The notes beneath the pieces were generated by a model that made no database searches, had not been told where the DNA came from, and was given only the letters and a program-made list of their open reading frames with translations. Both the position numbers and the translations under genes were made by a program. Shown here piece after piece: positions 6,639-34,603 of a stretch of DNA of 64,000 nt. Where the stretch lies: the NCBI GenBank assembly GCA_046327915.1, contig JAXLXO010000026.1, positions 23,069-87,068 on the forward strand. Reading direction: 5' to 3'. The first letter of the stretch is position 1; each line of letters opens with the position of its first letter. The DNA is from Candidatus Binatia bacterium (lineage in GTDB: Bacteria > Desulfobacterota > Binatia > UBA12015).

Positions 6639-6679
6639 GCTCGGCTCTCCTCCCCGGCCTTCGCGGCCGGCTGCATTTT

Positions 6680-6703
6680 GCGTAGTACGTACTGCTATTA
6701 CGC
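6680..6703. promoter_or_regulatory. Palindromic candidate operator in the AT-richer di-iron/MerR promoter region
   Basis: Perfect 10-bp palindrome AGTACGTACT (6684-6693) nested in GCGTA...TACGC (6680-6703). A TTGACT -35-like hexamer lies upstream on the minus strand. Confidence 0.3.
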
Positions 6704-6739
6704 ATTCTGCCGTGGAGTCAAGCCTCGCATTTCCCTGGC

Positions 6740-9026: not shown

Positions 9027-11199
9027 GGGGGGCCTCCAGCTTGTCGATGCGCACCGCTGCCACCTTGAACTCCGGGATGCCGGCGACCGGGTCGTACGCG
9101 CGGTTCGTGAGCAGGTTGGCCGACTGCGCGCCGGGCCAGTGATAGGGAATGAACACGGTGTCGGGGCGGATCGTCGCCACGACGAGAGCGGTGAGCTCCA
9201 GCGCGCCGCGCCGGCTCGACACGCGCACGCGGTCGCCGTCGCGCACGCCCAGCTTCGCGGCGAGCTTCGGGTGCAGCTCGACCTTCGGCTCCGGGTACTG
9301 CTCGACCAGCGGGCCGATGCGGCGCGTCTGCGTGCCCGACAGGAACTGCGAGACCACGCGTCCCGTCGTGAGGAGGATCGGATACTCGTCGTCGGTGGTC
9401 TCGGCGGGCGGCCGGTACTCGACCGCGTGGAACCGCGCGCGTCCGTCGCGGTGCGCGAAGCGGCCGCCCTCGAAGAGCCGCGGCGTGCCCGGATGATCCG
9501 GCGTCGGGCACGGCCAGAACACGCCCATCTGCCGCTCGATGCGCTCCCAGGTGATACCCGCGTAGTCGGCGACGCCGCCCGCCGACACGCGCGCGAGCTC
9601 GGTGAAGATCTCCTCGGGTCCCGCGAAGGCGAAGCGCTCGCCCTGTCCGAGACGGCGCGCGAGATCGCACACGATGCGCCAGTCGGCGCGCGCCTCCCCG
9701 GGCGGGTCGACCGCCTTGCGGATGCGGATCACCCTGCCCTCCGCGCTGGTGACGGTGCCCTCGTCCTCCTCCTGCAGCGAGCCCGGCAGGACGAGGTCCG
9801 CGTGGCGTGCGGTCTCGGACAGGAAGAAGTCGATCGCGGTGTAGAACTCGAGCCGCTCGAGCGCCTCGCGCGTGAACGTCGCGTCGGGCAGCGAGACCAG
9901 CGGGTTGAAGCAGAGCGAGATCAGTCCCCGGATCTCGCCGCGGTGGATCGCCTCCACGATCTGCGGCGCGGTGTAGCCCTTGCCGGGCAGCACGTCGGGC
10001 TCGACGCCCCACATCGCGGCGACGTGCGCACGGTGCGCTGGATTCTCGATGTCGCGCGCGCCGGGCAGCTGGTTGCAGCGCTGTCCGTGCTCGCGTCCGC
10101 CCTGCCCGTTGCCCTGTCCGGTGATCGTCGCGTAGCCGCAGCCGGGCTTGCCGATCCTGCCGGTCGCGAGGACGAGGTTGATGCACGCGAGGACGTTCTC
10201 GACGCCCTTGGTGTGGTGCTCGATGCCGCGCGCGTGCAGCAGAAACGTCCGCGGCGCCTGCACCCACATCGTCGCCGCCTCGACGATGCGCTCGGCCGGA
10301 ATGCCGACCTCGCGCGCGACGCTCTCCGGCGTGTAGCGCTCGACGGTGCGCAGCACCTCGTCGAAGCCGGTGGTGTGCGCGGCGACGAAGGCGTGATCGA
10401 CGCCGCCGAGCCGGATCACGACGTTCAGGATCGCGTTCAGCAGCGCCGAGTCGCGTCCCGGACGCACCGGGAGGTAGAGGTCCGCGGTGCGCGCGATCGG
10501 CGTCAGGCGCGGATCGACGACGACCAGCTTCGCGCCGCGGTCGCGCGCGCGCCAGATGTAGTCGGTGGTGATCGGGCTGCACTCGGAGACGTTCGCGCCC
10601 AGCACCAGGACCAGATCCGTGGACGGGATGTCCGCCCACGGGTTCGCAGCCCGGTCGATGCCGAAGGCCTTCAGGTTCGCGGCCCCGGCCGCGACCATGC
10701 AGAGGCGCCCGTTGTAGTCGATGTGCCGCGTGCCGACCGCGAGGCGCGCGAACTTGCCCATGAGGTACGCCTTCTCGTTGGTGAGCGACGCGCCGGACAG
10801 GACGGCGACCGAGTCCGGTCCGTGACGGTCCTGCAGCCGGCGCACGCGCTCGGCCACGAGGTCGAGCGCCTCGTCCCACGGGATGCGGCCGAAGCCGCCG
10901 CCGGTGCGCACCATCGGCTGCAGCAGGCGGTCCGGATGGTTGTTCTGCAGGTAGCGCTTGACGCCCTTCGGGCAGAGCTTGCCGCCGTTGAACGGAAACT
11001 CCTCCCACGGCTCGACGCCGACCACGCGCTCGTCCCGGACGAGCAGCTTGACGCCGCACTGCTGGCCGCAGAAGCAGCAGTGCGTCTGCACCTTGCGGTC
11101 CGCGTGGGCGCGCGCCGCGAAGCCGCCGGGCGGCTCGTAGGAGCGGTGCGGTCCGTAGCGGTCGACGAGCTCTTCCAGCGGTGCGGTCGGCTTCGCCAT
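9007..11199 (-). CDS. Molybdopterin oxidoreductase, NasA/NarB-type (assimilatory-nitrate-reductase-like catalytic subunit)
   Basis: 730 aa from ATG 11199. N-terminal CxxCxxxC..C motif ([10 protein letters not shown]...KLCPKG). MGD core ([15 protein letters not shown]). No Tat signal and no in-frame TGA. Confidence 0.85.
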
Positions 11200-12233
11200 C
11201 ACGCAGCCCTCCGTGCCGGGTCCGACTCGGCGTGCGTGCCGAGAACGTGCGGGTGGAAGCGCGCGCCGACCAGCGCCGCCTGCGTGGTCGCGAGCCGACG
11301 ACGACGGCAGGCCGGGCACCAGTCGAGCGCGTCCAGCGCAAGGCCGCGCGCCGCGAGCATCGCGCGCACCGCGTCGTGCTGGACGCGCGGCGCGAGCGAT
11401 GCTCCGCAGCCGACGCACCCGACGCGGTCGTCCGAGCGCCGCACCGCGCGCGCACCGAGCTGCAGCGGCCGGATCAGTACGTGATGCAGCTTCGAGAACG
11501 GGATCGCCGCCAGCAGCACGATCACCGCGACCTCGTGCGCGGCGGACGCCACGTCGAAGAGCCGCGGCGCGTGCCGCGTCGCCGGCAAAGCGAGACCGGT
11601 CGCCGCGACGACGAGGAGCAGCACGAGGGGTGCCAGGTGGAACGACGACGTCTCTCCCGGAAGGGCGCGGATGCGAACGCGCCGCACGAGGAAGATCGAG
11701 GCACCGAGCAGCACCGCCACGCCGGCGAGCGCGAGCCCGTGGAACGCGAGCCAGCCGATCGCGCCGTCCACCGCGAAGCGCGCGGCCGGGACGCCGAGCA
11801 CGACGGCGCGGTAGTGCGCAGGACCGTCGGCCGCGAACCTCAGCCAGCCGAACACCAGCGGAACCGTGATCGCGAAGCTCGCGAGCGTGCCGAGCGAGAG
11901 CAGCAGGTGCGCGACCCAGCGCACGCGGGAGCGCCGTGCGACGAAGCGCTGCGCCACCAGGTCCGACGTCGCGGAGCGCAGCACCGCGCGCAGCTCGGCG
12001 GGATGCCGAAGTGCACGCAGGAGCGCGCCGGCGAGAGCGCGCGCGTGGAACGCCGACGGAGGACGCCGCCAGAACGCGCTTGCCCGGAACGCCGCTCCCG
12101 CGAACGCCGCCACGGTCGCACCGAGATAGCCCAGCAGCGCCGGATCGAGTGCCGCGCCGCGCTCCGAGCCGAAGAAGATCGCGAGCAGCAGCAGCGCCGT
12201 CGCGAGCGACGCGTCCCGCACCGGCGCGCTCAT
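11199..12233 (-). CDS. NarI/DsrM-like polytopic membrane protein with C-terminal CxxC..CxxC tail
   Basis: 344 aa from ATG 12233. Six to seven hydrophobic helices carrying His residues. [13 protein letters not shown] motif as in nitrate-reductase-gamma-like cytochromes b. Tail CVGCG...CPAC. ATGA and TGATG overlaps with the neighbours. Confidence 0.6.
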
Positions 12234-15200
12234 GCGCCACCGCCCGGGGCCGTCGCGGCCTCCGCCGCGGTGCAGGCCGACGCGCACGAGCCCGCACGCT
12301 GCAGCTGCTCCGGGGGCGGCAGCTCGACCCAGACGTCGTCGCCACGGAGCTCGACCGGAAACGTGCGGATCGCGTACTGAGGGTCCGCGAGCCCCGCTCC
12401 CGTCCGCAGCGAGAAGGTCTTCTTGTGCATGGGACACGCCACCTTGGGCTCGCCGTCCTGCGTGCCGAGCAGCCCGCGTGCGAGAACCGCGTCGCCGCGG
12501 TGCGGACACGTCGCCTGCGTCGCGTACCAGGCGCCGGCGCTCGCGAAGCGGAAGACGGCGATCTGCACGCCGCCGTGATCGTGATTGACGCCGCCGTCGG
12601 GCGGTACGTCTTCGGCGCGCGCGACGCGCACCCACGTGCGTCCGCCCGCGGGCGGCGCGAGCATGGCGGGACCGGCCGGCGGCGCGGACGGCCAATCCGC
12701 GGGGCGCCGCTGGCCGCGCTCGCGCACGAACGCGACGCGCGGATCCGGCGCGTTGCCGTCCGCGAAGTGCCGGAACGCGGCCCGCTTCGCGGGGTCGCGC
12801 ACGACCTCCGCCCACTCGCACGAGTAGGCGTCGACCAGCAGCTGCATGTCGCGCTCGAGATCCGCGCAGAGTCCGAGCGCGTCGTCGACGATGACGCTCC
12901 TCAGGTACTCGATGCCGCCGTCCATGCGCTCGATCCAGCGCGCGGTCCGCTCGAGCGGGTTCGCGGTCTGGACGTAGTACATGAGGAAGCGGTCGATCAG
13001 CCGGATCAGCGTGTCCTCGTCGAGGTCGGACGCGACCAGATCCGCGTGTCGCGGCTGCGCGCCGCCGTTGCCGCCAAGGTAGAGGTTCCAGCCGGTCTCG
13101 GTCGCGATGACGCCGAAGTCCTTGCTCTGCGCCTCGGCGCACTCGCGGATGCACCCCGACACGGCCGACTTGAGCTTGTGCGGCGCGCGGATGCCGCGGT
13201 ACCGCTCCTCGATGCGGATCGCGAGCGTGGTCGAGTCCTGCACGCCGAAGCGGCACCACGTCGAGCCGACGCAGCTCTTCACCGTCCGCATCGCCTTGCC
13301 GTAGGCGTGTCCGCTCTCGAAGCCGGCCTCGACCAGCGCCTCCCAGATCTCCGGCAGCTGCTCGACGCGCGCACCGAGCAGGTCGATGCGCTGCCCGCCG
13401 GTGATCTTGCAGGCGAGGTCGAACCTCTTCGCGACCTCTGCGATCACCATGAGCTTGTCGGGCGTGATCTCGCCGCCCGGAATGCGCGGAATCACCGAGT
13501 ACGTCCCGCCGCGCTGGATGTTGGCGAGGAAACGGTCGTTGGTGTCCTGGATCGACGCGTGCTGCAGGACGAAGTCGTTCCAGCTGCTGGCGAGGATCGA
13601 CGCGATCGCGGGACGGCACACCTCGCAGCCGGCCCCCGTGCCGTGGCTCGCGAGCAGCTGCTGGAAGCTGCGCACGCGCTTCAACTTGACGATCTGGAAC
13701 AGCTCCTGGCGCGTGAACGCGAAGTGCTCGCACAGGTCGCGGTTGGGCTCGCGCCCCGCACGCGCGAGCTCGGCGTCGAGGATCTGCGCGACCAGGGGGA
13801 CGCAGCCGCCGCAGCCCGTGCCGGCCTTCGTGCACGACTTGACGCCGCCGACGGTCGTCAGCTCCTGCTCCGCGATCGCGGCGCGGATCCGTCCCTTGCT
13901 CACGTTGTTGCACGAGCAGACCTGGGCGTCGTCGCCGAGGCTGCCCGCGACGCCCGCCGCGCCGACGCCCCCGCTGCTGCCGAACAGCAGCTCGTGCGAG
14001 CGCTCGGGCAGCGGCATGCCGCTCTTCGACAGCGCCAGCAGCGATGCGTACGGCCCCGCGTCGCCGACGAGAATGCCGCCCAGCAGCCGCTGCCGGTCGT
14101 CGCTGAGGATCAGCTTCTGGTAGACGCCGCGCGCGCGGTCCTCGTAGACCACGCGGTGCACGCTGGTGCCCGCCGACTCGTCGGCGAAGCAGCCGCCGAA
14201 GCTCGCGACGTCGACGCCGAGCAGCTTGAGCTTCGTCGACAGGTCGGCGCCGGTGAAGCGGCGGTCCTCGCCGCAGAAGCGCGCGGCGAGCGTCTCCGCC
14301 ATCTCGTAGCCGGGTCCGACGAGGCCGTAGATCATGCCGCCGACCAGCGCACACTCGCCGATCGCGAAGATGCGCGGGTCCGCGGTCGCGAGCGTCGGAT
14401 CGACGACGATGCCACCGCGCTCGCCGACCGCGAGGCCGGCGCCGCGCGCGAGCTCGTCGCGCGGCGTGATGCCGGCCGAGACGACGACCATGTCGACCGC
14501 GATCGTGACGCCGTCACGGAAGCGCAGCGCCGCGACCGGTGAGGCGGCATCGCTCGCGACGGCGCCGTCGATCGCCTCGGTCTGCGCCGCGACGTGAACG
14601 TGCACGCCGAGGCTCTCGATCGCGCGGCGCAGCACGTCGCCGCCGCCGCCGTCCACCTGACGCGGCATGAGGCGCGGCGCCGCCTCGACGACGTGCGTCT
14701 CGATGCCCATGTCGAGCAGCGCCTTCGCCGCCTCGAGCCCGAGCAGCCCGCCGCCGATCACCGCGGCGCTGCGAGCACGCGCGCCCCACGCGCGAATCGC
14801 CTCGAGATCCTCGATCGTGCGGTACGCGAACACGCCCGGTCGCGCGATTCCGGGCAGCGGTGGCACGAACGGCGCGGAGCCGGTCGCGAGCACGAGCGCG
14901 TCGTAGCGCCGGGTGCGCCCCGTCGCGGTGACCACCGTGCGCGCCGCGCGGTCGATCTCCGTCACGCGCTCCGCGAGGTGAAGCGCGATGCCCTGCTCCG
15001 CGTACCAGCCGCGCGTCTCGAGCTGCAGGTCGTCGGCGGTCTTGCCCGCGAAGAAGGCGCTCAGGTGCACGCGGTCGTACGCCGGCCGCGGCTCCTCGCC
15101 GATGCAGACGAGGCGGAAGCTCTCGCCGCTGTCGCGCTCGGTGAGCAGCTCGCAGAAGCGATGCCCGACCATGCCGTCGCCGACCACGACCACCGTGCGC

Positions 15201-15241
15201 CGTTCGTCGCCGTCGCCGTCGTCCCGCTCGCTCATCGTCAC
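12230..15241 (-). CDS. nirB: NAD(P)H nitrite reductase large subunit fused to a NirD-like Rieske domain (NirB-NirD)
   Basis: Rossmann motifs ([26 protein letters not shown]). BFD-like Cys pairs. Sirohaem/FeS motifs ([22 protein letters not shown]). C-terminal CPHRG...CPMHKK domain. Start is GTG 15241 or ATG 15235. Confidence 0.9.
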
Positions 15242-15587: not shown

Positions 15588-17162
15588 TCAGAACGAGAGG
15601 ATGCCCTCCAGATACCCGTAGTTGCCGTCGCTGCCGACGAAGTTCTGATCGATCACGCCCTGTCCCCACGCGTGCGCGTAGAAGGCGTTCATCTTGAAGA
15701 ACGACGTCGGCCGGATCTCGAAGTTGACGTGCGCCAGGTAGGCCAGCTCGTAGCGGCCCTTCGCCGGGACGCCGCCGAAGCCGAAGAAGTCGTTCTTCGT
15801 GGCGCCGCCGCCGAAGTACGCGAGGTCCTGCGAGCTGTTGACGCGCAGCCAGTGGAAGTCCGTGCGCACCGTGACCATCGGCAGCGGGTCCATCAGCGCC
15901 TGCACGAAGACGTCCTGGTTGTTCATCATGTTGTAGAACGGGAACTGCGCGTACAGCCACGCCGTCGGCAGCATCTGGAAGAACGTCTGATGCCGGTCGT
16001 CGTTCGGGTTCGGGTCACCCGACGCGCTGTCGATGCCGAGCCGCAGCCACGGCCGCGACCACAGCTCGGCGAGCTGGTAGCCCGCCTCGACGCCGTAGGC
16101 CCACGCGGTGTGGTCCTGGTTCTGGTAGTTGCCCATCTGGCCGTAGCCGTACGCCAGGCCGTCGGCGAAGCCCGGGCCGAGCTCCTCGACGTGGATCACG
16201 TTCGCGCCGACGGTGTGGATCGTCGACGACTCGCCCTTCGCCGCTTGACGCACGGGCAGCGGACGATTGTCGGTGTAAACGACGTCGCGGTAGTCGTGGT
16301 AGACGAACCAGAACAGGCGTCCGATCGTGTTGCCGAGCTGCGGTGAGTCGGGCAGGTTCAGCGCGACGCCGCCGAGGTCGATGTCGAGCTCGCGGTTCGC
16401 GTCGACCTCGTAGCCGCCGTAGGTCGGGCGGAAGCCGAAGCCGGTGACGTTGATCAGGTCGTTGCCGAAGCCGACCTGGCCGCCGTCGAAGCTGCGGCCG
16501 ACGTGCGTGTAGTCGAACGGCCCGATCAGGCGCTGCCCGATGCGGTTCGCCTGCAGCCACTTCAGGTTGGGCTGCTTCGCCGCCACGTCGACGCCGTCGT
16601 AGTAGAGCTGGCGCCCGCCCTTGAGGAACAGGCCGTCGAGACCGAACAGGCTCTTCGTCTGCGCCCACGCATTGCGCAGGATCACGCCGTTCTGCGTGTG
16701 GCTCATCGTGTTGGCGTAGTACGTCCCGCCGACGCCGACCGCGCCCGACGGCACGTTGCCGAGCGTCGAGTCCTGCACCTGGACGAACATCTCGTAGGGC
16801 GCGCGCGTGACGCGGACGCCGACCTGCAGCTTGTTGCCGACGAAGTTGTAGCGCGAGTCCGGCGTCGGCGAGTCGGAAGGCGGCTGGAACCAGTCGACGA
16901 ACTCGGCGCGGAAGCGGTCGAAGATCTCGAGCCGGATCCTGCTGTCCCACGGACCGTCGGTCTCGATCCGCGGCGCCGCCGACGCCGCAGCCGGCGCCGC
17001 CGGCGCTGCGGCTGGCGCTGCCGCCCCGGCCCCGGAGCTCTGCGCCGACGAAACCGGCGGCAGCACGAGCAACGACAGCGACGTCAAGCACACAGCGGAA
17101 ACGATCGCGCGACGCCGCGGCGACGCTCCCATGAGGACACCTCCTCCCCTTCGGCGAATCAT
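15588..17162 (-). CDS. Outer-membrane beta-barrel porin, alginate-export (AlgE-like) family
   Basis: Signal peptide (...LVLPPVSSAQS), Ala/Pro linker, alternating beta-strand pattern and aromatic C-terminus (...GYLEGILSF). An alternative start at 17132 is possible. Confidence 0.7.
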   Translation of the reverse strand: MIRRRGGGVLMGASPRRRAIVSAVCLTSLSLLVLPPVSSAQSSGAGAAAPAAAPAAPAAASAAPRIETDGPWDSRIRLEIFDRFRAEFVDWFQPPSDSPTPDSRYNFVGNKLQVGVRVTRAPYEMFVQVQDSTLGNVPSGAVGVGGTYYANTMSHTQNGVILRNAWAQTKSLFGLDGLFLKGGRQLYYDGVDVAAKQPNLKWLQANRIGQRLIGPFDYTHVGRSFDGGQVGFGNDLINVTGFGFRPTYGGYEVDANRELDIDLGGVALNLPDSPQLGNTIGRLFWFVYHDYRDVVYTDNRPLPVRQAAKGESSTIHTVGANVIHVEELGPGFADGLAYGYGQMGNYQNQDHTAWAYGVEAGYQLAELWSRPWLRLGIDSASGDPNPNDDRHQTFFQMLPTAWLYAQFPFYNMMNNQDVFVQALMDPLPMVTVRTDFHWLRVNSSQDLAYFGGGATKNDFFGFGGVPAKGRYELAYLAHVNFEIRPTSFFKMNAFYAHAWGQGVIDQNFVGSDGNYGYLEGILSF

Positions 17163-17187: not shown

Positions 17188-18873
17188 TCAAGGGGCCTTG
17201 TGATCGCTCTCCTCGGCCGTCTGCCCCGCAGCGCGCGCGCCCGAGCTGCCGTAGCGCTCCGCCATCGACCGCTTGATCGCCTGCATCTGCTCCTCGGCGC
17301 CCTTCTGGAACCAGGCGTGCTCGGGTCGCGCGAGGATCTCGTCGATCACCGCGTTCGCACGCGCAGCGGCCTCGCCCTGCCCGTTCTCGGCGGCGTGCTT
17401 CGTGATCTCGCGCGCCTGCGGGATCAGCCCCATGTAGAAGCGGTCGGCGACCTCGAACATGCCGTGCCACTGCGTGTAGTCGGGTGCCATCATCGAGGCA
17501 CCCATGCGGGCGCGGCGTCCCTCGTGATGCCAGAGGTAGAACCACGTCCACTCGATCTCCTCGTCGTACTGCGTCGGCGTGAGGAGCTTCTCCTTCGCGA
17601 GCGTGCTCATGATCTGCTGGCCCGGCTTGGCGAACTTCTCGTTGTAGAGCAGCAGCAGACTGTCGTACTGCGAGTAGAACGCGTTGACGTAATCCGGGGT
17701 GTGGCAGTGACCGCACACCTCCTTCATCCGCGTGCGCTTCTGCTCCCAGGTGTCGGTGATCTTCTCCCGACGCTCGGCGGGATCGGTCGCGGTCACGATC
17801 TTGCCGCTGGCGTCGGTGTCCATGAGCAGGCTGACCGGCGGACGGTTGGTCCACGACAGCCGGCTGCCGGGATCGTGCGTGATCTTCCGTCCGTTGCGCG
17901 TGTTCGCCGACATGTGACAGGTCGCGCACGTCGGGGCCGCGGAGTAGTCCTCGCCGAGCACCCACTTCTCCGCGTTCAGGTTCATCTTGTCGTGCAGGTC
18001 GCGGAAGGCGACGCCGTGCTTCGACTCCTCGTAGATCTCCTTCTGCGGATGATCCGGACCGAGGTGGCACTTGCCGCAGTTCTCGGGCTGGCGCGCGCGC
18101 CGCGGCGAGAAGTCGTGGCGGCTGTGGCACGCCGAGCACGAGCCGCGCGAGCCGTCGAGGTTCAGGCGCCCGATGCCGGTGTTCGGCCACGTCTCGCGGT
18201 CGAAGAGCGGACGGCCCTTGTCGTCGCGCAGGATGTTCGCCGCGGCGTCCTTGTCGGTCGGGATGCCCTCGGCGTTCGGCTTGAGCTGGTCCACGTTGAT
18301 CGAGCCGCCGTTCTTCGAGCGCAACGCGACCTTGCTGCCGTGACACTGCTGGCAGCCCGAGAACGCGGCGGCGAGCCCGTTGACCTGGGTTACCTCCATG
18401 CCGGGAGTCTGCCCGTGCGGATTGAACGGCTGCCGCGCCCCCTCGACGTTCTCGGCGAGGAAGTTGTCGAGCGAGGCGAGGATGTTGCCCGCCGCCGCAT
18501 GATGGCTGCGCTCGAACTCCTGCGACACGTCGGCGTGACAGCGCGCGCAATCACGCGGCGTCGTGACGGTCGCGATCAGCTGCCCGTAGTGCTCGAAGGC
18601 GTCGGCGTCCTCCTTCGACGCCTGATGACACTCGACGCACGCGACGCCGCTGCGCGCGTGCTTGCTGCCCTCCCACTGCGCGACGATGCCGGGGTTGCTC
18701 TCGTTGTGGCAGCGGACGCACTCCTGCGACGCCGCCGGCACGGCGATGTGCGGACTCTCGAGCCCGGCCTCCTCGGCGCGGCGGATGACTTCCCGGCGCT
18801 GCACGTAGACGAGGGAAAGAAGAAAGATCAGCGAGGCGCCGATCAGCACCCAGCGCTTCTGGTTCAGCGTCAT
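17188..18873 (-). CDS. Octahaem hydroxylamine-oxidoreductase (HAO)-family cytochrome c with N-terminal membrane anchor
   Basis: Eight CxxCH motifs (CVRCH, CVECH, CARCH, CQQCH, CSACH, CGKCH, CATCH, CGHCH). HAO-like CGKCHLGPDHPQKEIYEESKHG and WHHEGRRARMGASMMAPDYTQWHG. ATG 18873 lies 1 nt after the cytochrome b stop. Confidence 0.85.
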   Translation of the reverse strand: MTLNQKRWVLIGASLIFLLSLVYVQRREVIRRAEEAGLESPHIAVPAASQECVRCHNESNPGIVAQWEGSKHARSGVACVECHQASKEDADAFEHYGQLIATVTTPRDCARCHADVSQEFERSHHAAAGNILASLDNFLAENVEGARQPFNPHGQTPGMEVTQVNGLAAAFSGCQQCHGSKVALRSKNGGSINVDQLKPNAEGIPTDKDAAANILRDDKGRPLFDRETWPNTGIGRLNLDGSRGSCSACHSRHDFSPRRARQPENCGKCHLGPDHPQKEIYEESKHGVAFRDLHDKMNLNAEKWVLGEDYSAAPTCATCHMSANTRNGRKITHDPGSRLSWTNRPPVSLLMDTDASGKIVTATDPAERREKITDTWEQKRTRMKEVCGHCHTPDYVNAFYSQYDSLLLLYNEKFAKPGQQIMSTLAKEKLLTPTQYDEEIEWTWFYLWHHEGRRARMGASMMAPDYTQWHGMFEVADRFYMGLIPQAREITKHAAENGQGEAAARANAVIDEILARPEHAWFQKGAEEQMQAIKRSMAERYGSSGARAAGQTAEESDHKAP

Positions 18874-18874
18874 G

Positions 18875-19927
18875 TCAATGCTCCACCGCGGCTTCCCAGA
18901 TCGTGAGGGCCACGATCGCGAGCACGCCCAACATTCCGATCCACACGCTCGCTTCGCTGAAGCGCGTGTGGCGTCGGATCCACGCATCGATGAACGGCCA
19001 GGCGAACATCACGAACACGATGAACCCGGTCGAGAGGACCGCGACGGTCCCGGAGAAGAGCTTCAGCCAGCGAAAGGCGACGTAGAAGAACCACTCCGGC
19101 TTGATCACCTCGGGCGTCGAGAGCGGGTCCGCCTGCGGCCCGAGGTGCGCCGGCAGCGCCGTCGCGAGCACCGACAGCAGCACCATGAGCAGGATGCCGA
19201 TGGTGAGCTCGGTCATGAGGTGGTCCGGCACGAAGTTGAAGTGTCCGCTCGCGGTCCTGTCGTCGTCGCCCTCGAAGCGGAACTCGGTCACGCCCTGGAT
19301 GCGGATGATCGCGATGTGGATCGCGAGCAGCAGCACCAGCAGGACGGGCAGCACCGCCGCGTGCAGCACGAAGAAGCGCGGCAGCGTGTGCTCGTTGTAG
19401 ACCTCGCCGCCGAGCAGCATCTCCTTCATCGGCTCGCCCACGATCGGCACGCTGGCCGCGATGTTCGCGCCGACCGTGGCGCCCCAGTAGCTGAGCTGCT
19501 CGAAGACCAGGCTGTAGCCGGTGAAGCCGAGCACCAGCGTGCACAGCAGGATGCACATGCCGACCATCCAGTTGATCTCGCGCGGCTTGCGGTACGCGCC
19601 GGTGAAGAAGACGCGCATCTGGTGCAGGATCACCGCGGCGATCATCAGCGTCGCGCCCCACTTGTGGACGCTGCGGATGAACCAGCCGTACGCGGCTTCC
19701 TCGCTGATGTAGCGCACCGACTGGTACGCGCTGGTCGACGACGGCTGGTAGTAGACCGCGAGCAGGATGCCGGTCGCGATCTGGACGATGAAGAGGTAGG
19801 CCGGCGTGCCGCCGAGCGCGAACCACCAGCGCTTCAGGTGATTCGGCACCGGCTCGTTGGTGAGCTCGCGAAGCTCCGCGCCCGAGACCGGAACCCGTTC
19901 CTGGAACCACGCGGCGACGCGGCTCAT
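18875..19927 (-). CDS. Cytochrome b (fused b6/subunit IV type), Rieske/cyt b module 2
   Basis: 350 aa from ATG 19927. His-bearing helices (HKWGATLMIAAVILHQMRVFFTGAYRKPRE; FFVLHAAVLPVLLVLLLAIHI). PEWFFY motif. Confidence 0.85.
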   Translation of the reverse strand: MSRVAAWFQERVPVSGAELRELTNEPVPNHLKRWWFALGGTPAYLFIVQIATGILLAVYYQPSSTSAYQSVRYISEEAAYGWFIRSVHKWGATLMIAAVILHQMRVFFTGAYRKPREINWMVGMCILLCTLVLGFTGYSLVFEQLSYWGATVGANIAASVPIVGEPMKEMLLGGEVYNEHTLPRFFVLHAAVLPVLLVLLLAIHIAIIRIQGVTEFRFEGDDDRTASGHFNFVPDHLMTELTIGILLMVLLSVLATALPAHLGPQADPLSTPEVIKPEWFFYVAFRWLKLFSGTVAVLSTGFIVFVMFAWPFIDAWIRRHTRFSEASVWIGMLGVLAIVALTIWEAAVEH

Positions 19928-20460
19928 CACACGCCCTGCGTGCGGCCGGGACGCGAGACCAGCGCCTCGGTCGGCACGTTGATGAACACCAGCTGGCCGC
20001 GTACCTCGAGCGGATAGCGCGGCAGCGGCGTGTTGCCTTCCTTCGGAGGTCCGCCGGTGGGCTGGCCCTCGGGGTTGAACGTGCCGTTGTGGCACGGGCA
20101 GACGTACTGGTCGCGGTGCGCTTCCCAGTGCACCTGACAGCCGAGGTGCGGACACGTGCTCGACAGCGCGACGAAGTCGGCCGCGGTGGAGCCCTGACCG
20201 AGCCGCGTCACGTTGATGGTCTGGCCGGTCGGCGCCGTCCAGCGCAGCGAGCCTCCCGCGGGCAGCTGGTCGAGCCGCGCGACGTACGTCCACGCGCGGC
20301 GCGCCGGTCCGGCCGGGTAGAGAAAGCGCCCTGCGTAGGCGGCGAACGTGCCGTACGCGGCGGCGAGCGCACCCACCAGGCCGAGGTTCAGCATGCGCGC
20401 GAGCAGATCGCGGCGCTCCGGCACGGGCGCTGCCGGCCCTTCGACGAGTCCCTCCTCCAT
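19927..20460 (-). CDS. Rieske [2Fe-2S] subunit, module 2
   Basis: CPHLGCQVHW...CPCHNGTF boxes. N-terminal hydrophobic anchor. ATG 20460 with SD GAGAGGGGGAA. TGATG overlap with the cytochrome b gene. Confidence 0.8.
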   Translation of the reverse strand: MEEGLVEGPAAPVPERRDLLARMLNLGLVGALAAAYGTFAAYAGRFLYPAGPARRAWTYVARLDQLPAGGSLRWTAPTGQTINVTRLGQGSTAADFVALSSTCPHLGCQVHWEAHRDQYVCPCHNGTFNPEGQPTGGPPKEGNTPLPRYPLEVRGQLVFINVPTEALVSRPGRTQGV

Positions 20461-20532: not shown

Positions 20533-21117
20533 TCAAGAATGGACGCGCTCCCGAAGCAGATCGACGGCCAGCGCGACGTGCGAATCCGGTGCGAGATCCG
20601 CGGCTTCGCCGAGGCGCGCGACCAGCGGAGCGAGGTGCGCAGCCACGAACGCGGCACGCGCCGCCGCAACGGTGTGCGCCGCCTCCGCGTCCCCGTTCGC
20701 CCAGGCGAGCGACTCCTTGAGCTCCAGAAATCCGACGAACCCCGCCTCCACGGCCACGTGGTCGGGCGGGTCCTCGGCACGGGGAGCGTAGCCGAACGCC
20801 TCGTAGAAGCGCGCCAGCTCCGAGAACATCCAGCCCGGATCGCCGAACCCCAGCGCACTCGCCTCGCGCGGCGACAGCGGCGCGCCCGGACCGAGCAGCG
20901 CGTGGTACTCGCCCTCGGTGATGCCGCGCGCGGCGGCGACGACCGCGCGCAGCGGCGGATCGTCGATCTCGTCCGCGAGGCGGTCGATCTCGGTGCTCCA
21001 GCCCGCGCGCGGACGCTCGAGGAGAAGTCCGAGCAGGCGCCAGTGCGCCGCGCGGGCGATTCCGTCGGCGACGCGGGTGGTGGCGCCCGCGTCGTGTCCG
21101 TTGCCTGCCGTGCTCAT
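20533..21117 (-). CDS. TorD/NarJ-family redox-enzyme maturation chaperone (delta)
   Basis: 194 aa. Core FYEAFGYAPRAEDPPDHVAVEAGFVGFL is typical of the family. ATGA overlap with the gamma gene. Confidence 0.7.
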   Translation of the reverse strand: MSTAGNGHDAGATTRVADGIARAAHWRLLGLLLERPRAGWSTEIDRLADEIDDPPLRAVVAAARGITEGEYHALLGPGAPLSPREASALGFGDPGWMFSELARFYEAFGYAPRAEDPPDHVAVEAGFVGFLELKESLAWANGDAEAAHTVAAARAAFVAAHLAPLVARLGEAADLAPDSHVALAVDLLRERVHS

Positions 21118-21968
21118 GGTGCCTCCGTCACACGCAGCGGCACCCAGCCGGTGCGCATCTTGCGCGCGCCGACCTCGCCGTGCTCGCCCGACCAGATCGC
21201 GAACGCGATCACGTCCGGAGTGTCGCCGCCGCCTCCGGCGAGCGGCCGCACGAGAACCACCGACCATCCCGACGGCGTGCGCACGCCGCGGCCCGTGGAC
21301 CGTGCGTGCTCCGCCGGGCGCAACGTGCCGGGCCCCTCGCCGACGAGGTCCTGCACCGGCTCGCTGCGCGGCCCCGCGACGTCGTTGCCGACCGCGCGCG
21401 CCGGTGCGTAGCGCTTCGCCATCGCCACCTGCTCGGGCGATCCCTTGACGAGGCTCGCCGCGTCGAACGGATAGCCGTCGACTCCCGCCGCGGGATAGAG
21501 CGCGCGGATGTCGTCCGGGCGTCCGTCGACGTTCGCCTGCCACGAGGCGCGCCAGTAGGTGATCTCGACCGGGCGTCCCGGCTCGCCCATCTGCGGCGCG
21601 GGAGCGTCGGGCGAGCGCTTCGCCGGCGTCTGCAGCGCGCAGGCGTCGGCGAACTTCGCCGGCCCCGGCACGTCGTTCGGGCTCGCATCGGACCAGTCGA
21701 GGCGGACGGCGAGCTTCGTGCCGTCGGTCAGGGCGCGCACGCGGACCTCCGGCGTCGACGGCGCGAGCAGGCGCGGCTCGACGATGTCCTGCAGTTGCAG
21801 CGCGGCGCGGTACTCCGGCGCGTCCTGCCAGGCGGCGTCGGCGGGATCGGTCGCGATCGCGGCGCGCCGCACGGCGCGGACCTCGGTCGCGGGCGTGTCC
21901 TGCGCCGGCTTGCCGCCGCAGCCGGCGAGCAGAAGGAAGATCGGGAGAAGCCGATGCCAGCGTCTCAT
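21114..21968 (-). CDS. EbdC/NxrC-like gamma subunit with lipoprotein-type signal peptide
   Basis: 284 aa. MRRWHRLLPIFLLLAGCGG lipobox. Resembles the ethylbenzene-dehydrogenase-gamma/DOMON-like fold family. SD GAGGAGG. Confidence 0.65.
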   Translation of the reverse strand: MRRWHRLLPIFLLLAGCGGKPAQDTPATEVRAVRRAAIATDPADAAWQDAPEYRAALQLQDIVEPRLLAPSTPEVRVRALTDGTKLAVRLDWSDASPNDVPGPAKFADACALQTPAKRSPDAPAPQMGEPGRPVEITYWRASWQANVDGRPDDIRALYPAAGVDGYPFDAASLVKGSPEQVAMAKRYAPARAVGNDVAGPRSEPVQDLVGEGPGTLRPAEHARSTGRGVRTPSGWSVVLVRPLAGGGGDTPDVIAFAIWSGEHGEVGARKMRTGWVPLRVTEAP

Positions 21969-21979
21969 GGCACACCTCC

Positions 21980-23109
<1,130 letters not shown>

Positions 23110-23110
<1 letters not shown>

Positions 23111-26100
23111 CAGACGTTCTCCTTCTTCGCGTCCGCCGCATCCTGCGGAGCGAGCTCGCCCGCGAGGTAACGCTTCATCACGTCGCTCTCGGTGCCCGGA
23201 CGGAGCCCGAGCTTCGCGGGACGCCACAGCCCCTCGCCGCCCATGCCGCCGGCCTCGGCCCTGGTGATCTTGACGATCGACTCGCGTGGCGCGCCGGTCG
23301 GGCAGTGCACGTCGGGCAGGAAGCCCTTGCCGATCTGCTGGCCGAAGAGCTCCTTGCGCACCAGCGAGTCGGTCATCCACGTCGGCTTCAGCCAGCCGCG
23401 CGTCGCCGCCTGGTGCGATCCGGAGCGGAACATCGCCTGGTAGTTGGTGCGCGGGTTCTTCGCGAGACCGTCGGGACGGCTCTTCGCTCCCTCGACCGAG
23501 CCGGGCGTCGCGCCGTACATGTTGAACCACATCCGCGTCACGCCGCGCGGCGTGCCCGGGTAGGCGCGCGCGCGGCACAGCAGCCGCGAGAACTCGTAGT
23601 CCTTCGCGTTGTTCTGCCACCCGCGGAACGGACGATCGGCGGGATCGGAGTCGATCCACACGTAGTCGCCGTCCGCGACGCCGAGGGCGCGGGCGTCCTC
23701 GGGATTGATGTCGACGTAGCCTTCGGCGACGAACGGCGCGCGCGTGTCGTGCCGGTACATGTCGCCGAACGGGCCGAACAGCATCGCGACGAAGTCGGTG
23801 TCGATCGGCATGGTGTGCGCGCCGTGCCGGTACTTGGGCGTGTGGAAGACGAAGCGGTAGCCGTCGTCGGCGAGCGGATGCTTCGTCGCGCGGGTCTCGG
23901 CCCACGTCAGCACCACGTTGCGGCCCTGCCGGGTCTCGCAGTCGAGCGCGTCCCGCGACACGCCGTAGTCCTCGGGCCCCTTCGGACGCAGCGCCTCGTG
24001 GCGCGGCGCGACGATCACGTTCGGCTGGTAGAACGTGGAGTCGATCGGCTCGCGATGCACGGGCAGGTTCTCGCCCGCCTCGATGAACTCGTCCTCGTCG
24101 CGGTAGAACTCGAGCCGTCCGGTCTTCGTGTACCAGGGCCGGTTCTCCTCGACCTGCTCCCAGCCGACGGCCTTCGGATAGGTGCGCGACATGAGCAGCG
24201 CGGGAATGCCGTTCTTCGCCTTCTCGTGCAGGTCGTCGATGTCGTAGCCCGCCGCGCAGGACGAGCCGTCGAGGATGCGCTGCAGGTAGGTCTGCACGCG
24301 CTTCTCGCGCACGAACTTCCAGCAGTCGTCGAAGCGCTTGTCGCCGGTGCGCTCGGCGAGCGCGTGGCCGACGTTCGCGAGCACCTCGATGTCGCCGCGC
24401 GTGTCGAAGAGGCGCGGCATCGGCGTCTCGGGGAAGACCGTGATGAACGGGTTGGTGACCGAGGCGCAGATGTCCGGGTACTTGAGCTCGGCCCAGGAGT
24501 CGACGGCGAACACGACGTCGGCCCACTCGCACGACGTCGACCACCACCACTCGTTGACGCAGATCATCTCGATCGTCGGCAGGACGTTGACGACCGTGTT
24601 GTAGTGCCACTTGACGTTGCCGAGGATCGAGTTCGCGTTCGCGAACCACATCGACTTCGTCGGCGTCGGGATGTGGCCCTTTCCGGTCAGCGTGCGGTTA
24701 CCGACCTTCAGGATGTGGTGCTCGTGGTTGTAGTAGTGCGCCGACTCGGGCTTCCAGTACTGCTTGACGCGCGCCGGCTTCGACGGATCGAGCTCGAGGT
24801 CGAACGGGTTCTCGTTGATGTACTGCGGCACGCCGTTGAACAGCGAGACGCGGTAGTTGCCGGCGAACGAGCCGACGTTGCCGGCGAAGCGGCCGACGTT
24901 GCCGGTCAGCGCCGCGAGCAGGAAGATGTCGCGGTCCTTGTTGTCGTTGTTGAAGAACTGGTTCGGTCCCATGCCGACCGCGAACAGCGTCGTGCCGGGG
25001 TGGGCCGCGATGTCGCGCGCGAGGCGCTGCACCGCGTCCGCCGGCGCCCACGTCATGTCCTCGACGGTCTTCGGATCGAAGTGCGCGGCGTACTCCTTGA
25101 CCAGGTCGAAGACCGGACGGCAGCGCACCTTGCTCCCGTCCTGCAGCGTGACCTCGACCGAGCCCTCGAGCAGCGCGTCCCTGGTCACGTCGGACTGCGC
25201 TCCCACGGCGTCGCGCACCAGGCGGCGCGGCGCCTTCGCCGCGGCGTCCCACCAGACGTAATCGCCCCACTCGGCGCGCAGCGCCGCGGGCAGGATCTGG
25301 TCGTTCTGCTTGCCCGGCGGCGGCGCCTTCTCGCCGGCGGGCAGGATCTTCGTCTGGTTCGTTAGCGTTGCCGGATCGCCGCCGAAGACGTCCTTCGCGC
25401 TCAGGTTCTTCAGCGTGTCCATGCGGACCAGGACCGGCAGGTCGGTCCACTGGCGCACGTAGTCGGCGTCGTAGAGCTTCTCCTGCAGCACGACGTTGGC
25501 GAGGCCGAGCGCCAGGGCCGGCGTCGTGCCGGGCCGAACGACGATCGCGTCGTCGGCCTTCGACGAGGTCGACGAGTACTCGCACGCGATGTTGACGATG
25601 CGCGTGCCCTTGAGGCGCGCCTCCGTCATCCAGTGCGCGTCGGGCATCTTGGTCGTCACCCAGTTCATGCCCCAGATGACGAGCGTGCGGCACAGCTCGA
25701 CCGAGCTGAGATCGAACTCGACCGTCTGCTGGCCGGTCACCATCGGGTGACCCGGCGGCAGGTCGGTGTGCCAGGAGTAGTTGTCGAAGCCGCGCGCGCC
25801 CATCGCCTTGTCCGGCTCGACGCCGCGGATCTTCGCGTCGAGCAGCGCCATCGAGTTCGCGAGCCGGTACATGCCGAACACGCGCGTCAAGCCAAGAAGG
25901 GGCATGCCGCCGCGGAACTTGAGCACCTGCGTGCCGACGCCCTGCGTCGCCGCGACCACCTCGTCCTGGTAGCCCTGCGCGTGCAGCAGCCTCTGGCCCG
26001 CCTCGCCGTTGTAGGTCTCGGTGATGTTGACCAGCGCCGCGGCGACGATCGCCGCCGCCTCCTCGTGCGTGACGCGCAGCCACTCGTCGCGCGCGCGCTG

Positions 26101-26580
26101 GAACATCTCCTTCGGCGGACGTCCGTTCTCGTCGCGCGGGAAGCCCGCGTCGACCCACTGCTTGAAGCCCTTGCGCACCATCGGGTGGCGCACGCGCCGG
26201 TCGCCGTAGAAGCGGCGCGTGAGCGCGAGCCCCTTCTGGCAGACGCGCGGATCCCAGCGGTGCGACGCCTTGTTGCCGTCGAGATCGGTCGCCTCGCCGT
26301 AGCGCATGGTCGGCCCGATGCGCGTCACCACCCCCGAGCGCACGTACGCGTTCAGGATGCAGTTGTGCGTGTCGTTGGGCGCGCACAGGAAGGTGAATTT
26401 CGAGTCCGTCTTCCAGAGATCGCGGTAGGCGTTCTCCCAGTCGCGGCTCGGGTAGCGCGCGAGGGGGTTCTCGACCGCGTCGAGGCCCCACGCCCGCGTC
26501 GCCGACTGCACGAACGCTCCGAAGCCGAGCGCGCTCGCCCCCTCGAGGAACTGGCGCCGCGACAGGCCGTTGGATTTCAT
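23110..26580 (-). CDS. Tat-exported type II DMSO-reductase-family catalytic alpha subunit (NarG/NxrA-like)
   Basis: 1156 aa. Twin-arginine signal [24 protein letters not shown]-x3-D-x3-C-x39-C FeS motif. [11 protein letters not shown] contains the Asp that ligates Mo in NarG-type enzymes. SD GGGAGGA. Confidence 0.9.
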
Positions 26581-28247
26581 CTCGGGTCCTCCCAGCTGCG
26601 CAGGTACGTCGCGATCGCGACGATCTCGTCGTCGGCGAGCACGCGGTGCGCGGGCGATGCCGAGCCGAAGGCCGGCATCGAGGTGCCGCGGCGGCCGCGG
26701 CGGATCGTCTCGACGAGGTAGGTGTCGCTCGCGGCGGCGAGGAAGCGGCGGTTGGCGAGCGCCGGGCCTTCCTTGCCCTCGCCGTTCGCGCCGTGACACG
26801 ACGCGCACGACTCCGCGTACAGGCGCGCGCCGGTGGTCGCGTCACCGCCGAGCCAGCGCAGCGGCTGCGCGTCGACCGGGGCGTCGACGCCACCGGCGAG
26901 CGTCCGCAGGTGCGCGATCACCGCGTCGATCTCCTCCGGACGCAGGCCACCGGATCCCTCGCCCCACGCCGGCATGCGCCGTCCCGGACGTCCGTGCGTG
27001 ATGGTCTCGCGCAGGAAGCGGTCGGACGCGACGGCGAGGAAGTCGGGATTCGCGACGGCCGGGAACGCCGCCGCGCCGCCGTAGCGCATGCCCTCGCCCG
27101 ACGGACCGTGGCAGGCCGCGCAGAACGTGCCCCAGAGGGTCGCGCCGTCGGCCGCGAACTCGCGCTCGCCGAAGCGCTCGGCGCGGATGCGGTCGCGCGG
27201 CCAGAACTTCTCCGGCCGGTCGCTGCGGCGCAGCGACAGCATGTAGAACGTCAGCAGGTCGACCTGCCTGTCGTCGAGGCCGAGGACCGGCATCCGCGAG
27301 CCCGGCACCACCGCCGCGGGATCGCGGAAGTGCGCGCCGAACCAGCTCGACAGCGTGTGCTCGGGCACGCCGTGGAAGCTCGTCTGTCCGGGGTCCTTGT
27401 CGCCGACGTGCGTGAGATCCGGACCGTCGTCGCCGCCGACGCCGGCGATCTTGTGGCAGCCCCGGCAGCCGAGCTCGTGAAAGGCCGCCTTCGCGGCGAC
27501 GAGATCGGGCGCGCCGACGCGCGAGTCGAGGTAGGCGCGGATGACGTCGCGATCGTGCGCCGGGATCGGACCGAACGACGAGCGCCACGGCCCCTCGGTC
27601 GCGGCCTCGTGCCGCGCGAGATGCTCGTCGTACCAGCGCGGATCGACGCCGCGCGCCCCCACGCGGGACAGGTCGGGCGAAGGGATGCCGGCGGTGCCGG
27701 GACGCGTGGTGCCGCCGCGTCCGTCGAGCGCATGGCAGGCGAGGCAGTCGTTGCGCTCGAGCACGGCGAGGCCCTGCGCGAGATCGGCGCGCCGCGGCAC
27801 GGCGACGTGCGTGTGGCAGCTGCCGCAGCCCGCCCACGCGTAGCGTGCCGGCAGCATCGGCTCCGGCCAGTGCGGCACGGTGCCGTGCGCATCGCCGGTC
27901 TCGGTCGCGCGCCCCTGACCGCCGTGGCAGGCGACGCAGCCGAAGTCCGCCGGATCGTGCGCGACGTCCGGGTGCGGACCGAGCACCGGGTCGCCCGCGA
28001 TGCCGTGCTCGCCGGGCGCCATGCCGACGTGGCAGCTGATGCAGCGGTCGGTCGCGCCCAGCGCGGGCACGTAGCTCTGCCGCAGCTGCACCGCGAACGC
28101 GGCCGCCTGCTCGGGCGCGAGCCGGGCCTGGTAGCCGCGCTGGATGCGGCGCCAGTCGCGGTCGACGTTCTCGCGCCAGATCGCGACCAGCAGCAACGCG
28201 AGCGTTCCGAGGCTCGCGACGAGGAGGAGGATCTTGTTCGCGCGCAC
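26577..28247 (-). CDS. Membrane-anchored heptahaem cytochrome c
   Basis: N-terminal TM helix. Seven CxxCH motifs (CISCH, CVACH, CGSCH, CLACH, CRGCH, CAACH, CASCH). ATGA overlap with the alpha gene. Confidence 0.85.
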
Positions 28248-28257
28248 GGCCGTTCCC

Positions 28258-33758: not shown

Positions 33759-33771
33759 GCGCGTGTCCTCT

Positions 33772-34389: not shown

Positions 34390-34603
34390 ATGGTGCCTTC
34401 CCGCGACGTCCTGCGACCGGCTCGACGCCAGCGACACCCCGTCCTTTGCAAGGCTTGCGCCACCGGCACGCAGCCGCGAAGCGCCGTCGCCCGAGCGCGC
34501 GGCGCGCGCGCGAGCGCCTCCGAGCCCAAACGGTGAGCACGCGGTGCCTGCTTCTCGCGCGCCGGTTCGCCCGTCCGGAATCGGCGCGCTATACGCGGTC
34601 GCC

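Follow-up and report, generated by a model that had tools for sequence, protein, structure and literature searches.

Octahaem cytochromes encoded next to a Rieske protein and a cytochrome b have already been published in three settings: Caldithrix (PMC5317091), Nitrospira (PMC6311188, PMC12342949) and the R/b-3 complex of anammox bacteria (PMC12485887, PMC12954380). Function is predicted in all three, and the published hypotheses agree, by analogy, with the quinol-fed nitrite reductase that we propose here for a gene located at 17188-18873 (minus strand) in a 64,000-nucleotide stretch of Candidatus Binatia bacterium DNA (contig JAXLXO010000026.1, positions 23,069 to 87,068; this whole stretch is called the window). 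The gene encodes an octahaem protein of the hydroxylamine oxidoreductase (HAO) family which carries an N-terminal membrane anchor and, according to the alignments, lacks the cross-link tyrosine; our best explanation, which we consider fairly probable, is that it is bound to a Rieske/cytochrome b complex and reduces nitrite with electrons from quinol. New here are the scale and conservation of the family, the association of the anchor with Rieske/cytochrome b, the common extension of the module by napAB, and the NXR-type variant found in the window.

In Caldithrix abyssi (Cabys_2556-2564), a Tyr-less HAO-family octahaem gene lies directly after Rieske and cytochrome b genes and is joined to a nap cluster, as in the family described here, and the published hypothesis for this nap-Rieske-cytochrome b-epsilon-Hao arrangement is a quinol-fed nitrite reductase giving ammonium (PMC5317091). 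The Caldithrix system differs in its NapMADGH nitrate reductase and in an octahaem protein called periplasmic, whereas the window holds an NXR-type neighbour and an anchored protein; the comparison is of gene arrangement, not of sequences. A nap-linked layout comparable to that of Caldithrix is present in one relative of the window protein (P0184). The octahaem protein of Nitrospira (OCC/ONR) shares with the window the three-gene architecture of octahaem, Rieske and cytochrome b (petBC) genes (PMC6311188, PMC12342949), and quinol-dependent periplasmic reduction of nitrite to ammonium was proposed for it (PMC6311188, PMC6606698, PMC12342949). The Nitrospira octahaem and Rieske/cytochrome b genes are highly expressed with nitrite as the sole nitrogen source (PMC6606698, PMC7522533, PMC6311188), and in N. 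japonica the ONR transcript falls upon ammonium addition (PMC6606698, PMC7522533); the role proposed there, in contrast to ours, is assimilatory.

Kuste4574 of Kuenenia stuttgartiensis (R/b-3) is an HAO-like octahaem protein without the cross-link, placed on a Rieske/cytochrome b complex as we propose for the window protein, and nitrite reduction was proposed for it (PMC12485887, PMC12954380), with NO as the product (PMC12954380); HAOr (Kustc0458, 6h5l) is its soluble homologue. The R/b-3 complex (Kuste4569-4574) differs in also holding an NAD(P) oxidoreductase and a multihaem cytochrome, which in the window sit in a separate upstream operon. All the component types of R/b-3 are thus present in the window, but they are divided between two operons that each encode a Rieske protein and a cytochrome b of their own and that occur separately in other genomes. 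IhOCC (Igni_0955-type, 4qo5) of Ignicoccus hospitalis is described as a nitrite reductase without P460 (PMC9250108), and the available part of another description of it (PMC4429474) mentions no Rieske/cytochrome b partner. Like the window protein, IhOCC has eight CxxCH motifs in the same order and no cross-link Tyr; it differs in being archaeal, in sharing only 24% identity with the window protein, and in lacking anything equivalent to the conserved anchor and charged linker at the N-terminus. The epsilon-Hao of epsilonproteobacteria, compared by description only, resembles the window family in being reductive, Tyr-less and often located beside nap (as summarised in PMC5317091).

The Rieske, cytochrome b and octahaem genes of the window form a self-contained three-gene module:

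19927-20460, minus strand: Rieske [2Fe-2S] protein with an RR (Tat-like) N-terminus and the cluster motifs CPHLGC / CPCHNG
18875-19927, minus strand: cytochrome b of the fused b6 + subunit IV type, 350 amino acids (Pfam Cytochrome_B, 182 bits)
17188-18873, minus strand: octahaem c-type cytochrome assigned to the HAO/IhOCC clade, 561 amino acids, with membrane anchor; cross-link Tyr absent from the alignment column

The Pfam Rieske and Cytochrome_B models both match the module proteins above their cut-offs, and the cytochrome b carries haem ligands with b6-type spacing (H118-x13-H132 and H219-x14-H234, that is 13 and 14) together with a PEWF Qo motif. The end of the Rieske gene overlaps the beginning of the cytochrome b gene by one base (TGATG), and a single C (18874) stands between the stop codon of cytochrome b (TGA, 18877-18875) and the octahaem ATG (18873). 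This 1 nt gap and the eight CxxCH motifs had been reported in a preliminary description of the stretch, and both are confirmed: the protein has exactly eight motifs (residues 52, 79, 109, 174, 246, 266, 316 and 387), which use all of its 16 cysteines, a scan of all 561 residues found no CxxCK, and none of 20,000 residue shuffles exceeded two CxxCH. The order of the eight motifs matches that of Nitrosomonas europaea HAO (NeHAO) one-to-one, and all eight are invariant among 65 diverse relatives. The same description called the octahaem gene the terminal gene, which holds for the three-gene module and fails for the operon, where a porin gene follows 25 nt downstream. A longer open reading frame (ORF) starting at 18987 was rejected as the octahaem gene, because 18 of the 19 aligned homologues share the later Met at 18873.

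Sequence and predicted fold both place the octahaem protein in the HAO/HDH/IhOCC clade, which is clade 1 in PMC9250108, and within it nearer to IhOCC. Its best sequence match in the PDB is IhOCC 4qo5 (E 1e-42; 1e-49 with the family profile), followed by Kustc0458 6h5l (E 4e-26), with HDH, N. europaea HAO and anammox HOX at E of about 1e-11 to 1e-14; Pfam Multi-haem_cyto matches with 78 bits, and the family profile aligned to a small HAO/HOX profile with 99.7% probability (hhalign). An AlphaFold2 model built with 20 close homologues was unusable (pLDDT 47) and was replaced by one from a 65-sequence alignment including distant representatives (pLDDT 92.3, pTM 0.85), in which three long C-terminal oligomerisation helices are modelled (393-427, 439-460 and 464-496). 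Compared with the PDB by Foldseek, this model ranks IhOCC first (TM 0.59/0.64) and Kustc0458 second (TM 0.53/0.58), and the oxidative HAO/HOX/HDH (TM 0.43-0.48) are the most distant of the significant matches; every one of the 11 matches at E <= 0.001 is an HAO-family chain. The two closest solved structures by sequence and by fold are therefore the two reductive, cross-link-free members, IhOCC and Kustc0458, and the HAO-like character noted in the preliminary description stands.

No significant fold match was obtained with TvNiR (Foldseek E 0.02, TM 0.25) or NrfA (Foldseek E >= 0.1). An identity as an ONR of the NrfA/TvNiR type was consequently rejected, there being neither a CxxCK motif nor an NrfA-like fold match. 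OTR and MccA are absent from the PDB sequence matches at E <= 1 and from the 50 best Foldseek matches listed, so that the tetrathionate/sulfite reductase type is excluded and the grouping with such cytochromes that had been raised as a possible objection does not apply. We consider it very unlikely that the octahaem protein acts on another oxyanion, such as sulfite, tetrathionate, selenite or tellurite, instead of a nitrogen oxide. Promiscuity is common among multihaem reductases, and the NCBIfam model that scores best with the cytochrome b is ExtP, a cytochrome of selenite/tellurite operons, at a score below the cut-off (224 vs 290 bits), but neither OTR nor MccA appears among the listed sequence and fold matches of the octahaem protein, and all the functional neighbours found concern nitrate or nitrite (NapAB, the NXR-type enzyme, NasST, NirBD and NasA).

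Four segments of the octahaem protein carry most of its functional interpretation:

18802-18852, minus strand: uncleaved N-terminal transmembrane signal-anchor, residues 8-24 (WVLIGASLIFLLSLVYV), assigned from conservation, the AlphaFold2 helix and the hydropathy of 120 homologues
18340-18354, minus strand: fourth CxxCH (C174-QQ-C177-H178), by motif order the site of the HAO catalytic haem 4
18049-18054, minus strand: Asp274-His275, aligned with the NeHAO distal-pocket Asp267-His268 by HMMER and hhalign
17461-17484, minus strand: residues 464-471 (PDYTQWHG), the segment homologous to the HAO cross-link loop, with Gln468 in the Tyr column

The cross-link Tyr lies in the context NPGGWTYTEGW in NeHAO (Tyr467) and MYNQTYGNG in the HOX of K. 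stuttgartiensis (KsHOX, Tyr451); the NeHAO query was 100% identical to 4fas, and KsHOX was aligned to it in the same search. When NeHAO, HOX and IhOCC were aligned by L-INS-i with 50 family members and diverse relatives (53 sequences in all), this column held Gln468 in the window protein and Thr in IhOCC, and it is His in 117 of 120 close relatives. The column was taken from MAFFT with IhOCC as a bridge, because the HMMER profile searched against the PDB left the C-terminal third unaligned to NeHAO; HMMER, independently of MAFFT, aligns the cross-link loop to IhOCC, with which the window protein shares the loop motif D-[W/Y]-T-x-[F/W]. The oxidative cross-link Tyr, which the preliminary description could not place and proposed to seek by alignment with HAO and HOX, is on this alignment absent. 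The exceptions to this near-invariant His are the window protein and two of its close relatives, which have Gln.

The remainder of the predicted active site is strongly conserved. The fourth CxxCH is followed by G[SA] in all 120 homologues, and the motif GPDHP, which contains Asp274-His275, is likewise kept in 120/120; among 44 distant relatives, the Asp274 and His275 columns are retained in 33 and 29, respectively, and the six His outside the CxxCH motifs that are candidate distal ligands (H72, H95, H125, H253, H286 and H333) in 39 to 44 (at least 89%). A five-coordinate haem 4 with a distal Asp-His pair is predicted from these alignments. NeHAO Tyr334 aligns with Arg344, which is invariant in 20 aligned relatives and, by analogy with NrfA, would suit the binding of an anion.

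These results bear on the oxidative reading, according to which the protein would be a hydroxylamine, NO or hydrazine dehydrogenase as database names say. The protein is a true homologue of HAO and its homologues are annotated 'hydroxylamine oxidoreductase/dehydrogenase', but no Tyr is found in the cross-link column, HAO, HOX and HDH come last among the significant structural matches, the predicted partner is a Rieske/cytochrome b complex that oxidises quinol, and neither amo nor hzs is present within the window; we regard an oxidative role as hardly credible. The labels themselves ('hydroxylamine oxidoreductase' or 'hydroxylamine dehydrogenase') were seen in the source records of P0009, P0020, P0028, P0033, P0068, P0100 and others. 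Because the Tyr is missing and the context is reductive, they are probably misleading for nitrification calls in metagenomes.

A further reading keeps nitrite as the substrate and changes the product: the protein would form NO, like Kuenenia HAOr (Kustc0458), and feed denitrification rather than ammonification. In favour of this, Kustc0458 ranks second among the solved structures, NO is the product that HAOr makes from nitrite (as cited in PMC12485887 and PMC9250108), and the same role was proposed for the Rieske/cytochrome b-bound Kuste4574 of anammox bacteria (PMC12954380). IhOCC, an octahaem nitrite reductase by the description in PMC9250108, is nevertheless clearly closer (E 1e-42 vs 4e-26; TM 0.59 vs 0.53), no nor or nos gene lies within the window, the Nitrospira and Caldithrix analogues were assigned to ammonium formation (PMC6606698, PMC5317091), and the invariant Arg at the position of NeHAO Tyr334 may bind an anion in the manner of NrfA. 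NO formation is the main alternative to our explanation, and we consider it doubtful.

The N-terminus of the octahaem protein is best described as a conserved membrane anchor, not a cleavable signal peptide. A hydrophobic segment (W8-V24) lies between K6-R7 and Q25-R26-R27, the latter opening a charged helix, and inspection of the octahaem N-terminus found no small-x-small (AxA) cleavage site. Seven residues (F17, S20, L21, V24, Q25, E28 and R31) do not vary among 20 homologues drawn from several phyla (Acidobacteriota, Planctomycetota, metagenome-assembled genomes (MAGs) labelled Deltaproteobacteria, and other contigs), and the AlphaFold2 model predicts one helix from residue 3 to 35 (pLDDT 86-96). 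A signal peptide that is cleaved off would not be expected to keep residues in and after the helix invariant across phyla. The preliminary description had seen this hydrophobic helix and had contrasted it with a soluble HAO bearing the oxidative Tyr and a cleavable signal peptide; the helix is supported, the Tyr column holds Gln468, and the soluble, cleaved-signal-peptide trait of the oxidative HAO/HOX/HDH is not found in this N-terminus, where the helix is conserved and an AxA site absent. Among representatives at 50% identity, some clades have the same anchor and charged linker and others, the soluble sister clades, ordinary AxA-type signal peptides.

The module is widespread. Upwards of 7,900 proteins scored in the homologue search, the majority with about 70% identity; the representative library condenses the close family into fragments and a single full-length cluster at about 70% identity (P0121), and octahaem relatives are encoded in at least 582 stretches of GTDB species-representative genomes, of which the 80 best loci were read for gene neighbourhoods. 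The phyla named among these 80 loci include Acidobacteriota, Gemmatimonadota, non-anammox Planctomycetota, Chloroflexota, Krumholzibacteriota and Eiseniibacteriota, and further sources are Deltaproteobacteria/Polyangiaceae-labelled MAGs and Binatia; neither known nitrifiers nor Nitrospirota are among them. A cytochrome b gene lies directly upstream of the octahaem gene in all 80 loci and a Rieske gene upstream in 73, six of the seven misses being contig ends, and the order and strand of the three genes are constant wherever they were found. The genetic coupling to a quinol-oxidising module claimed in the preliminary description is therefore stronger than it had stated. Blind all-against-all clustering of the ORFs of the 80 loci, which missed napA (later recovered by directed tblastn), detected no neighbour beyond the three-gene module in more than about 10 of them. 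In one locus (L010, CP070812.1, a Gemmatimonadota MAG chromosome), the cytochrome b match is partial and no Rieske match was found in the 10 kb upstream flank, a pattern that could be due to frameshifts in a long-read assembly or to a decayed module. A 63%-identical member behind a cytochrome b gene was found on a 5.8 kb contig binned as 'Candidatus Kuenenia sp.' (L080, JAYTAK010001279.1), which is either mis-binned or an anammox copy of the module.

The sister clades extend this linkage. Three anchored sister clades (43-50% identity) all adjoin Rieske/cytochrome b, one of them in the order octahaem-Rieske-cytochrome b, followed by a gene for a NapA-sized molybdopterin enzyme and ferredoxin-type genes. 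Three soluble sister clades have neither the anchor nor Rieske/cytochrome b neighbours: the first lies behind small cytochrome c, NrfC-like and NrfD-like genes, the second near napF, napD and napA, and the third alone. The anchor is thus strictly associated with the Rieske/cytochrome b partner. An example of the first soluble type (L085, 7090-11479), 51% identical over the C-terminal half, lies behind small multihaem cytochrome, NrfC-like and NrfD-like genes, in a clade that includes proteins labelled Brocadiaceae and Planctomycetota. NrfA pairs with either NrfH or NrfBCD, and epsilon-Hao is paired with a NapC/NrfH-type tetrahaem quinol dehydrogenase, not with Rieske/cytochrome b. By analogy with NrfA, the octahaem protein appears to be the constant element and the quinol dehydrogenase the exchangeable one, and from this pattern we argue that the octahaem protein is probably the terminal reductase.

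The next gene after the module is frequently a nitrate reductase. In 34 of the 80 loci, napA lies directly downstream of the octahaem gene (e.g. L084, 11657-14601), mostly at less than 60 nt and at most about 300 nt, and in most of those 34 that extend far enough a NapB-like gene follows; the NapA of module loci is Tat-exported and scores above the two NCBIfam cut-offs for NapA. Five-gene Rieske-cytochrome b-octahaem-napA-napB operons are seen in the two annotated examples, and neither contains napC or napGH. With no NapC or NapGH encoded, NapAB has no candidate quinol dehydrogenase in these two operons other than the Rieske/cytochrome b/octahaem complex. The 'NapB' encoded in such operons (L084, 13969-14601) has four CxxCH motifs instead of the usual two, no NCBIfam match, and a weak match to Pfam NapB.

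No napA is present in the window. Another periplasmic molybdoenzyme operon, of the NXR/pNar type and resembling the NXR of Nitrospira and anammox bacteria, ends 72 nt upstream of the Rieske gene there:

23110-26553, minus strand: NxrA-like subunit, full-length match to Kuenenia NXR-A 7b04 (E 4e-267)
21980-23110, minus strand: NxrB-like (NarH-like beta) subunit of the periplasmic NXR-type operon
21114-21888, minus strand: gamma-like subunit of the same operon
20533-21252, minus strand: NarJ-like chaperone of the same operon

The NXR operon and the octahaem module were considered as one conserved unit, and this was rejected. In relatives with 93% and 78% identical NxrA, the operon ends at or just after the chaperone gene, and the relative with an 85%-identical octahaem protein has no NXR upstream of the module; because of these two observations, the NXR linkage is not ancestral. 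Since two different periplasmic nitrate-reducing enzymes (NapA and the NXR-type enzyme) adjoin the same module, the recurrent linkage to nitrate reductases points to nitrite as the likely substrate of the octahaem protein.

The same linkage admits a role as an electron wire, in which the octahaem protein replaces cytochrome c1/f and feeds NapAB, the NXR-type enzyme or oxidases, haem 4 having no physiological substrate or a side activity only. In the annotated five-gene operons without NapC or NapGH, NapAB must draw on this complex; the octahaem gene occupies the exact slot of the c-subunit gene in bc operons, and multihaem c subunits of bc complexes are known in anammox bacteria, Nitrospina and Methylomirabilis (PMC3578206, PMC12954380). 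Conduction as the sole function is difficult to reconcile with the distal Asp-His and the whole HAO catalytic architecture being invariant across phyla (79% mean column identity), with soluble sisters that pair with other quinol dehydrogenases in the pattern of a terminal reductase, and with about half of the loci having no partner enzyme nearby, and we consider it unlikely. A wire role and catalysis are compatible and do not exclude each other.

The reading of the module as a quinol-fed nitrite reductase, which the preliminary description had already suggested in the form of a reductive reductase fed from the quinol pool, gains support from the absence of the Tyr, the nearness to IhOCC and Kustc0458, and the linkage to Rieske/cytochrome b and to napA or NXR. 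The gene linkage predicts that the octahaem protein is a physical part of the Rieske/cytochrome b complex. It would be the third subunit of a b6f-like complex, in place of cytochrome c1/f, tethered by its single N-terminal transmembrane helix. Quinol would be oxidised at the Qo site of cytochrome b, and one electron would pass through the Rieske cluster and the eight-haem chain to the five-coordinate haem 4, which would reduce nitrite in the periplasm; haem 4 is expected to work reductively because the Tyr cross-link that makes HAO an oxidase is absent. The product would most likely be ammonium, as with IhOCC and epsilon-Hao, the alternative being NO, as with Kuenenia HAOr; ammonium seems likelier because IhOCC is the closest relative and because the Caldithrix and Nitrospira analogues were also assigned to ammonium. 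Nitrite would be supplied by the co-encoded periplasmic nitrate reductase (NapAB in many genomes, the NXR-type enzyme in the window), to which the haem chain probably passes electrons too. Because the donor is a Rieske/cytochrome b complex, nitrite reduction could be coupled to a proton-motive Q cycle.

Several points weigh against this reading. For every member of the family, activity, spectrum and complex are predictions from sequence. The Tyr assignment comes from MAFFT and HMMER alignments, and the hhalign alignment to HAO/HOX ends at about residue 450, before the loop. An invariant Tyr466 lies two residues upstream of the Tyr column; it is unlikely to be the cross-linker, as its counterpart is Trp in NeHAO as well as in IhOCC, and its column contains Y, W, F or I in distant relatives and Phe in 1 of 120 family members. 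About half of the loci have no nitrate reductase beside the module, and the cytoplasmic NirBD and NasA encoded in the window would make a second capacity for nitrite reduction to ammonium redundant. HAO-family proteins are trimers and bc complexes are dimers, which is a mismatch of stoichiometry. AlphaFold3 did not dock the anammox analogue Kuste4574 (PMC12954380). Nitrospira ONR is likened to the window protein by its published architecture alone, and by sequence it could be either of the HAO/IhOCC type or of the TvNiR type.

A more far-reaching version of the quinol-fed nitrite reductase, which we put forward only tentatively, is that the module forms a proton-motive quinol:nitrite oxidoreductase in which the anchored octahaem protein stands in for cytochrome c1/f, carries out the catalysis and also feeds the co-encoded nitrate reductase. 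If so, every periplasmic step from nitrate to ammonium would become electrogenic through one small complex, an unrecognised and widespread alternative to NrfAH/NapC would exist in Acidobacteriota, Gemmatimonadota, Planctomycetota and others, and the window module would stand in series with an NAD(P)H-linked Rieske/cytochrome b-NXR operon of the anammox R/b type, in an island possibly controlled by NasST. If the family consists of quinol-fed nitrite reductases, counting its members as nitrification potential in metagenomes would be wrong, and a common route of nitrite reduction, possibly an energy-conserving ammonification, would be missing from models of the nitrogen cycle. Non-anammox, partly cultured carriers exist (e.g. 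Acidobacteria bacterium Mor1), which is relevant to the role of anammox Kuste4574.

The module lies within a run of about 26-29 kb of nitrogen genes on the same (minus) strand. Read 5' to 3' on that strand, the head of the run contains nasT-like and nasS-like genes, a GltD-like oxidoreductase, a second Rieske and a second cytochrome b; the middle, a seven-haem cytochrome c, nxrABC-like genes, the chaperone, the Rieske/cytochrome b/octahaem module and the porin; and the tail, nirBD, a weakly NarI-like membrane protein, nasA and a major facilitator superfamily (MFS) transporter. The genes outside the module and the NXR-type operon proper are:

32475-34743, minus strand: NasS-like (NMT1_2) and NasT-like (response-regulator receiver + ANTAR) genes, at the head of the same-strand run
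20533-32266, minus strand: eight-gene operon from the GltD-like gene to the chaperone, with its own Rieske and cytochrome b
30296-32266, minus strand: GltD-like FAD/FeS NAD(P)H oxidoreductase of the eight-gene operon
about 29793-30299, minus strand: second Rieske, best PDB match the anammox Rieske structure 9rk4
about 28258-29796, minus strand: second cytochrome b, 512 amino acids, in the eight-gene operon
26577-28247, minus strand: anchored seven-haem cytochrome c of the eight-gene operon
15588-17162, minus strand: outer-membrane porin of the AlgE/alginate-export family (Pfam Alginate_exp), probably co-transcribed with the octahaem gene
5529-15241, minus strand: cytoplasmic assimilatory genes downstream of the module, on the same strand
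within 5529-15241, minus strand: fused NirB-NirD, 1003 amino acids, cytoplasmic
11199-12347, minus strand: membrane protein with a weak NarI-like match
9007-11235, minus strand: NasA-like nitrate reductase, cytoplasmic
6740-8281, minus strand: MFS transporter
5529-6890, minus strand: AurF-like di-iron N-oxygenase homologue

Given NirBD and NasA beside the module, periplasmic and cytoplasmic routes from nitrate to ammonium would coexist, and the NasS-like and NasT-like genes suggest control of the island by nitrate/nitrite-responsive antitermination. Scans of the window detected no Rfam match and only a background level of promoters and terminators, and no rRNA or tRNA gene lies within it; its GC content is 71%.

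By analogy, the eight-gene operon seems to encode an anammox-type NAD(P)-linked Rieske/cytochrome b complex that is connected to a periplasmic NXR. All eight genes recur in unchanged order in a Binatia MAG and in the relative whose NxrA is 93% identical, and the NxrA family, at 75-96% identity, is distributed across Chloroflexota, Binatia, Kryptonia, Eisenbacteria and Thermoanaerobaculia. The porin gene starts 25 nt downstream of the octahaem stop, behind a strong ribosome-binding site (GGAGGGAG), and occupies the same position in the relative with the 85%-identical octahaem protein; its product may be an outer-membrane channel for nitrate or nitrite. About a dozen other loci also have a porin of the AlgE/alginate-export family close to the module, on either its upstream or its downstream side.

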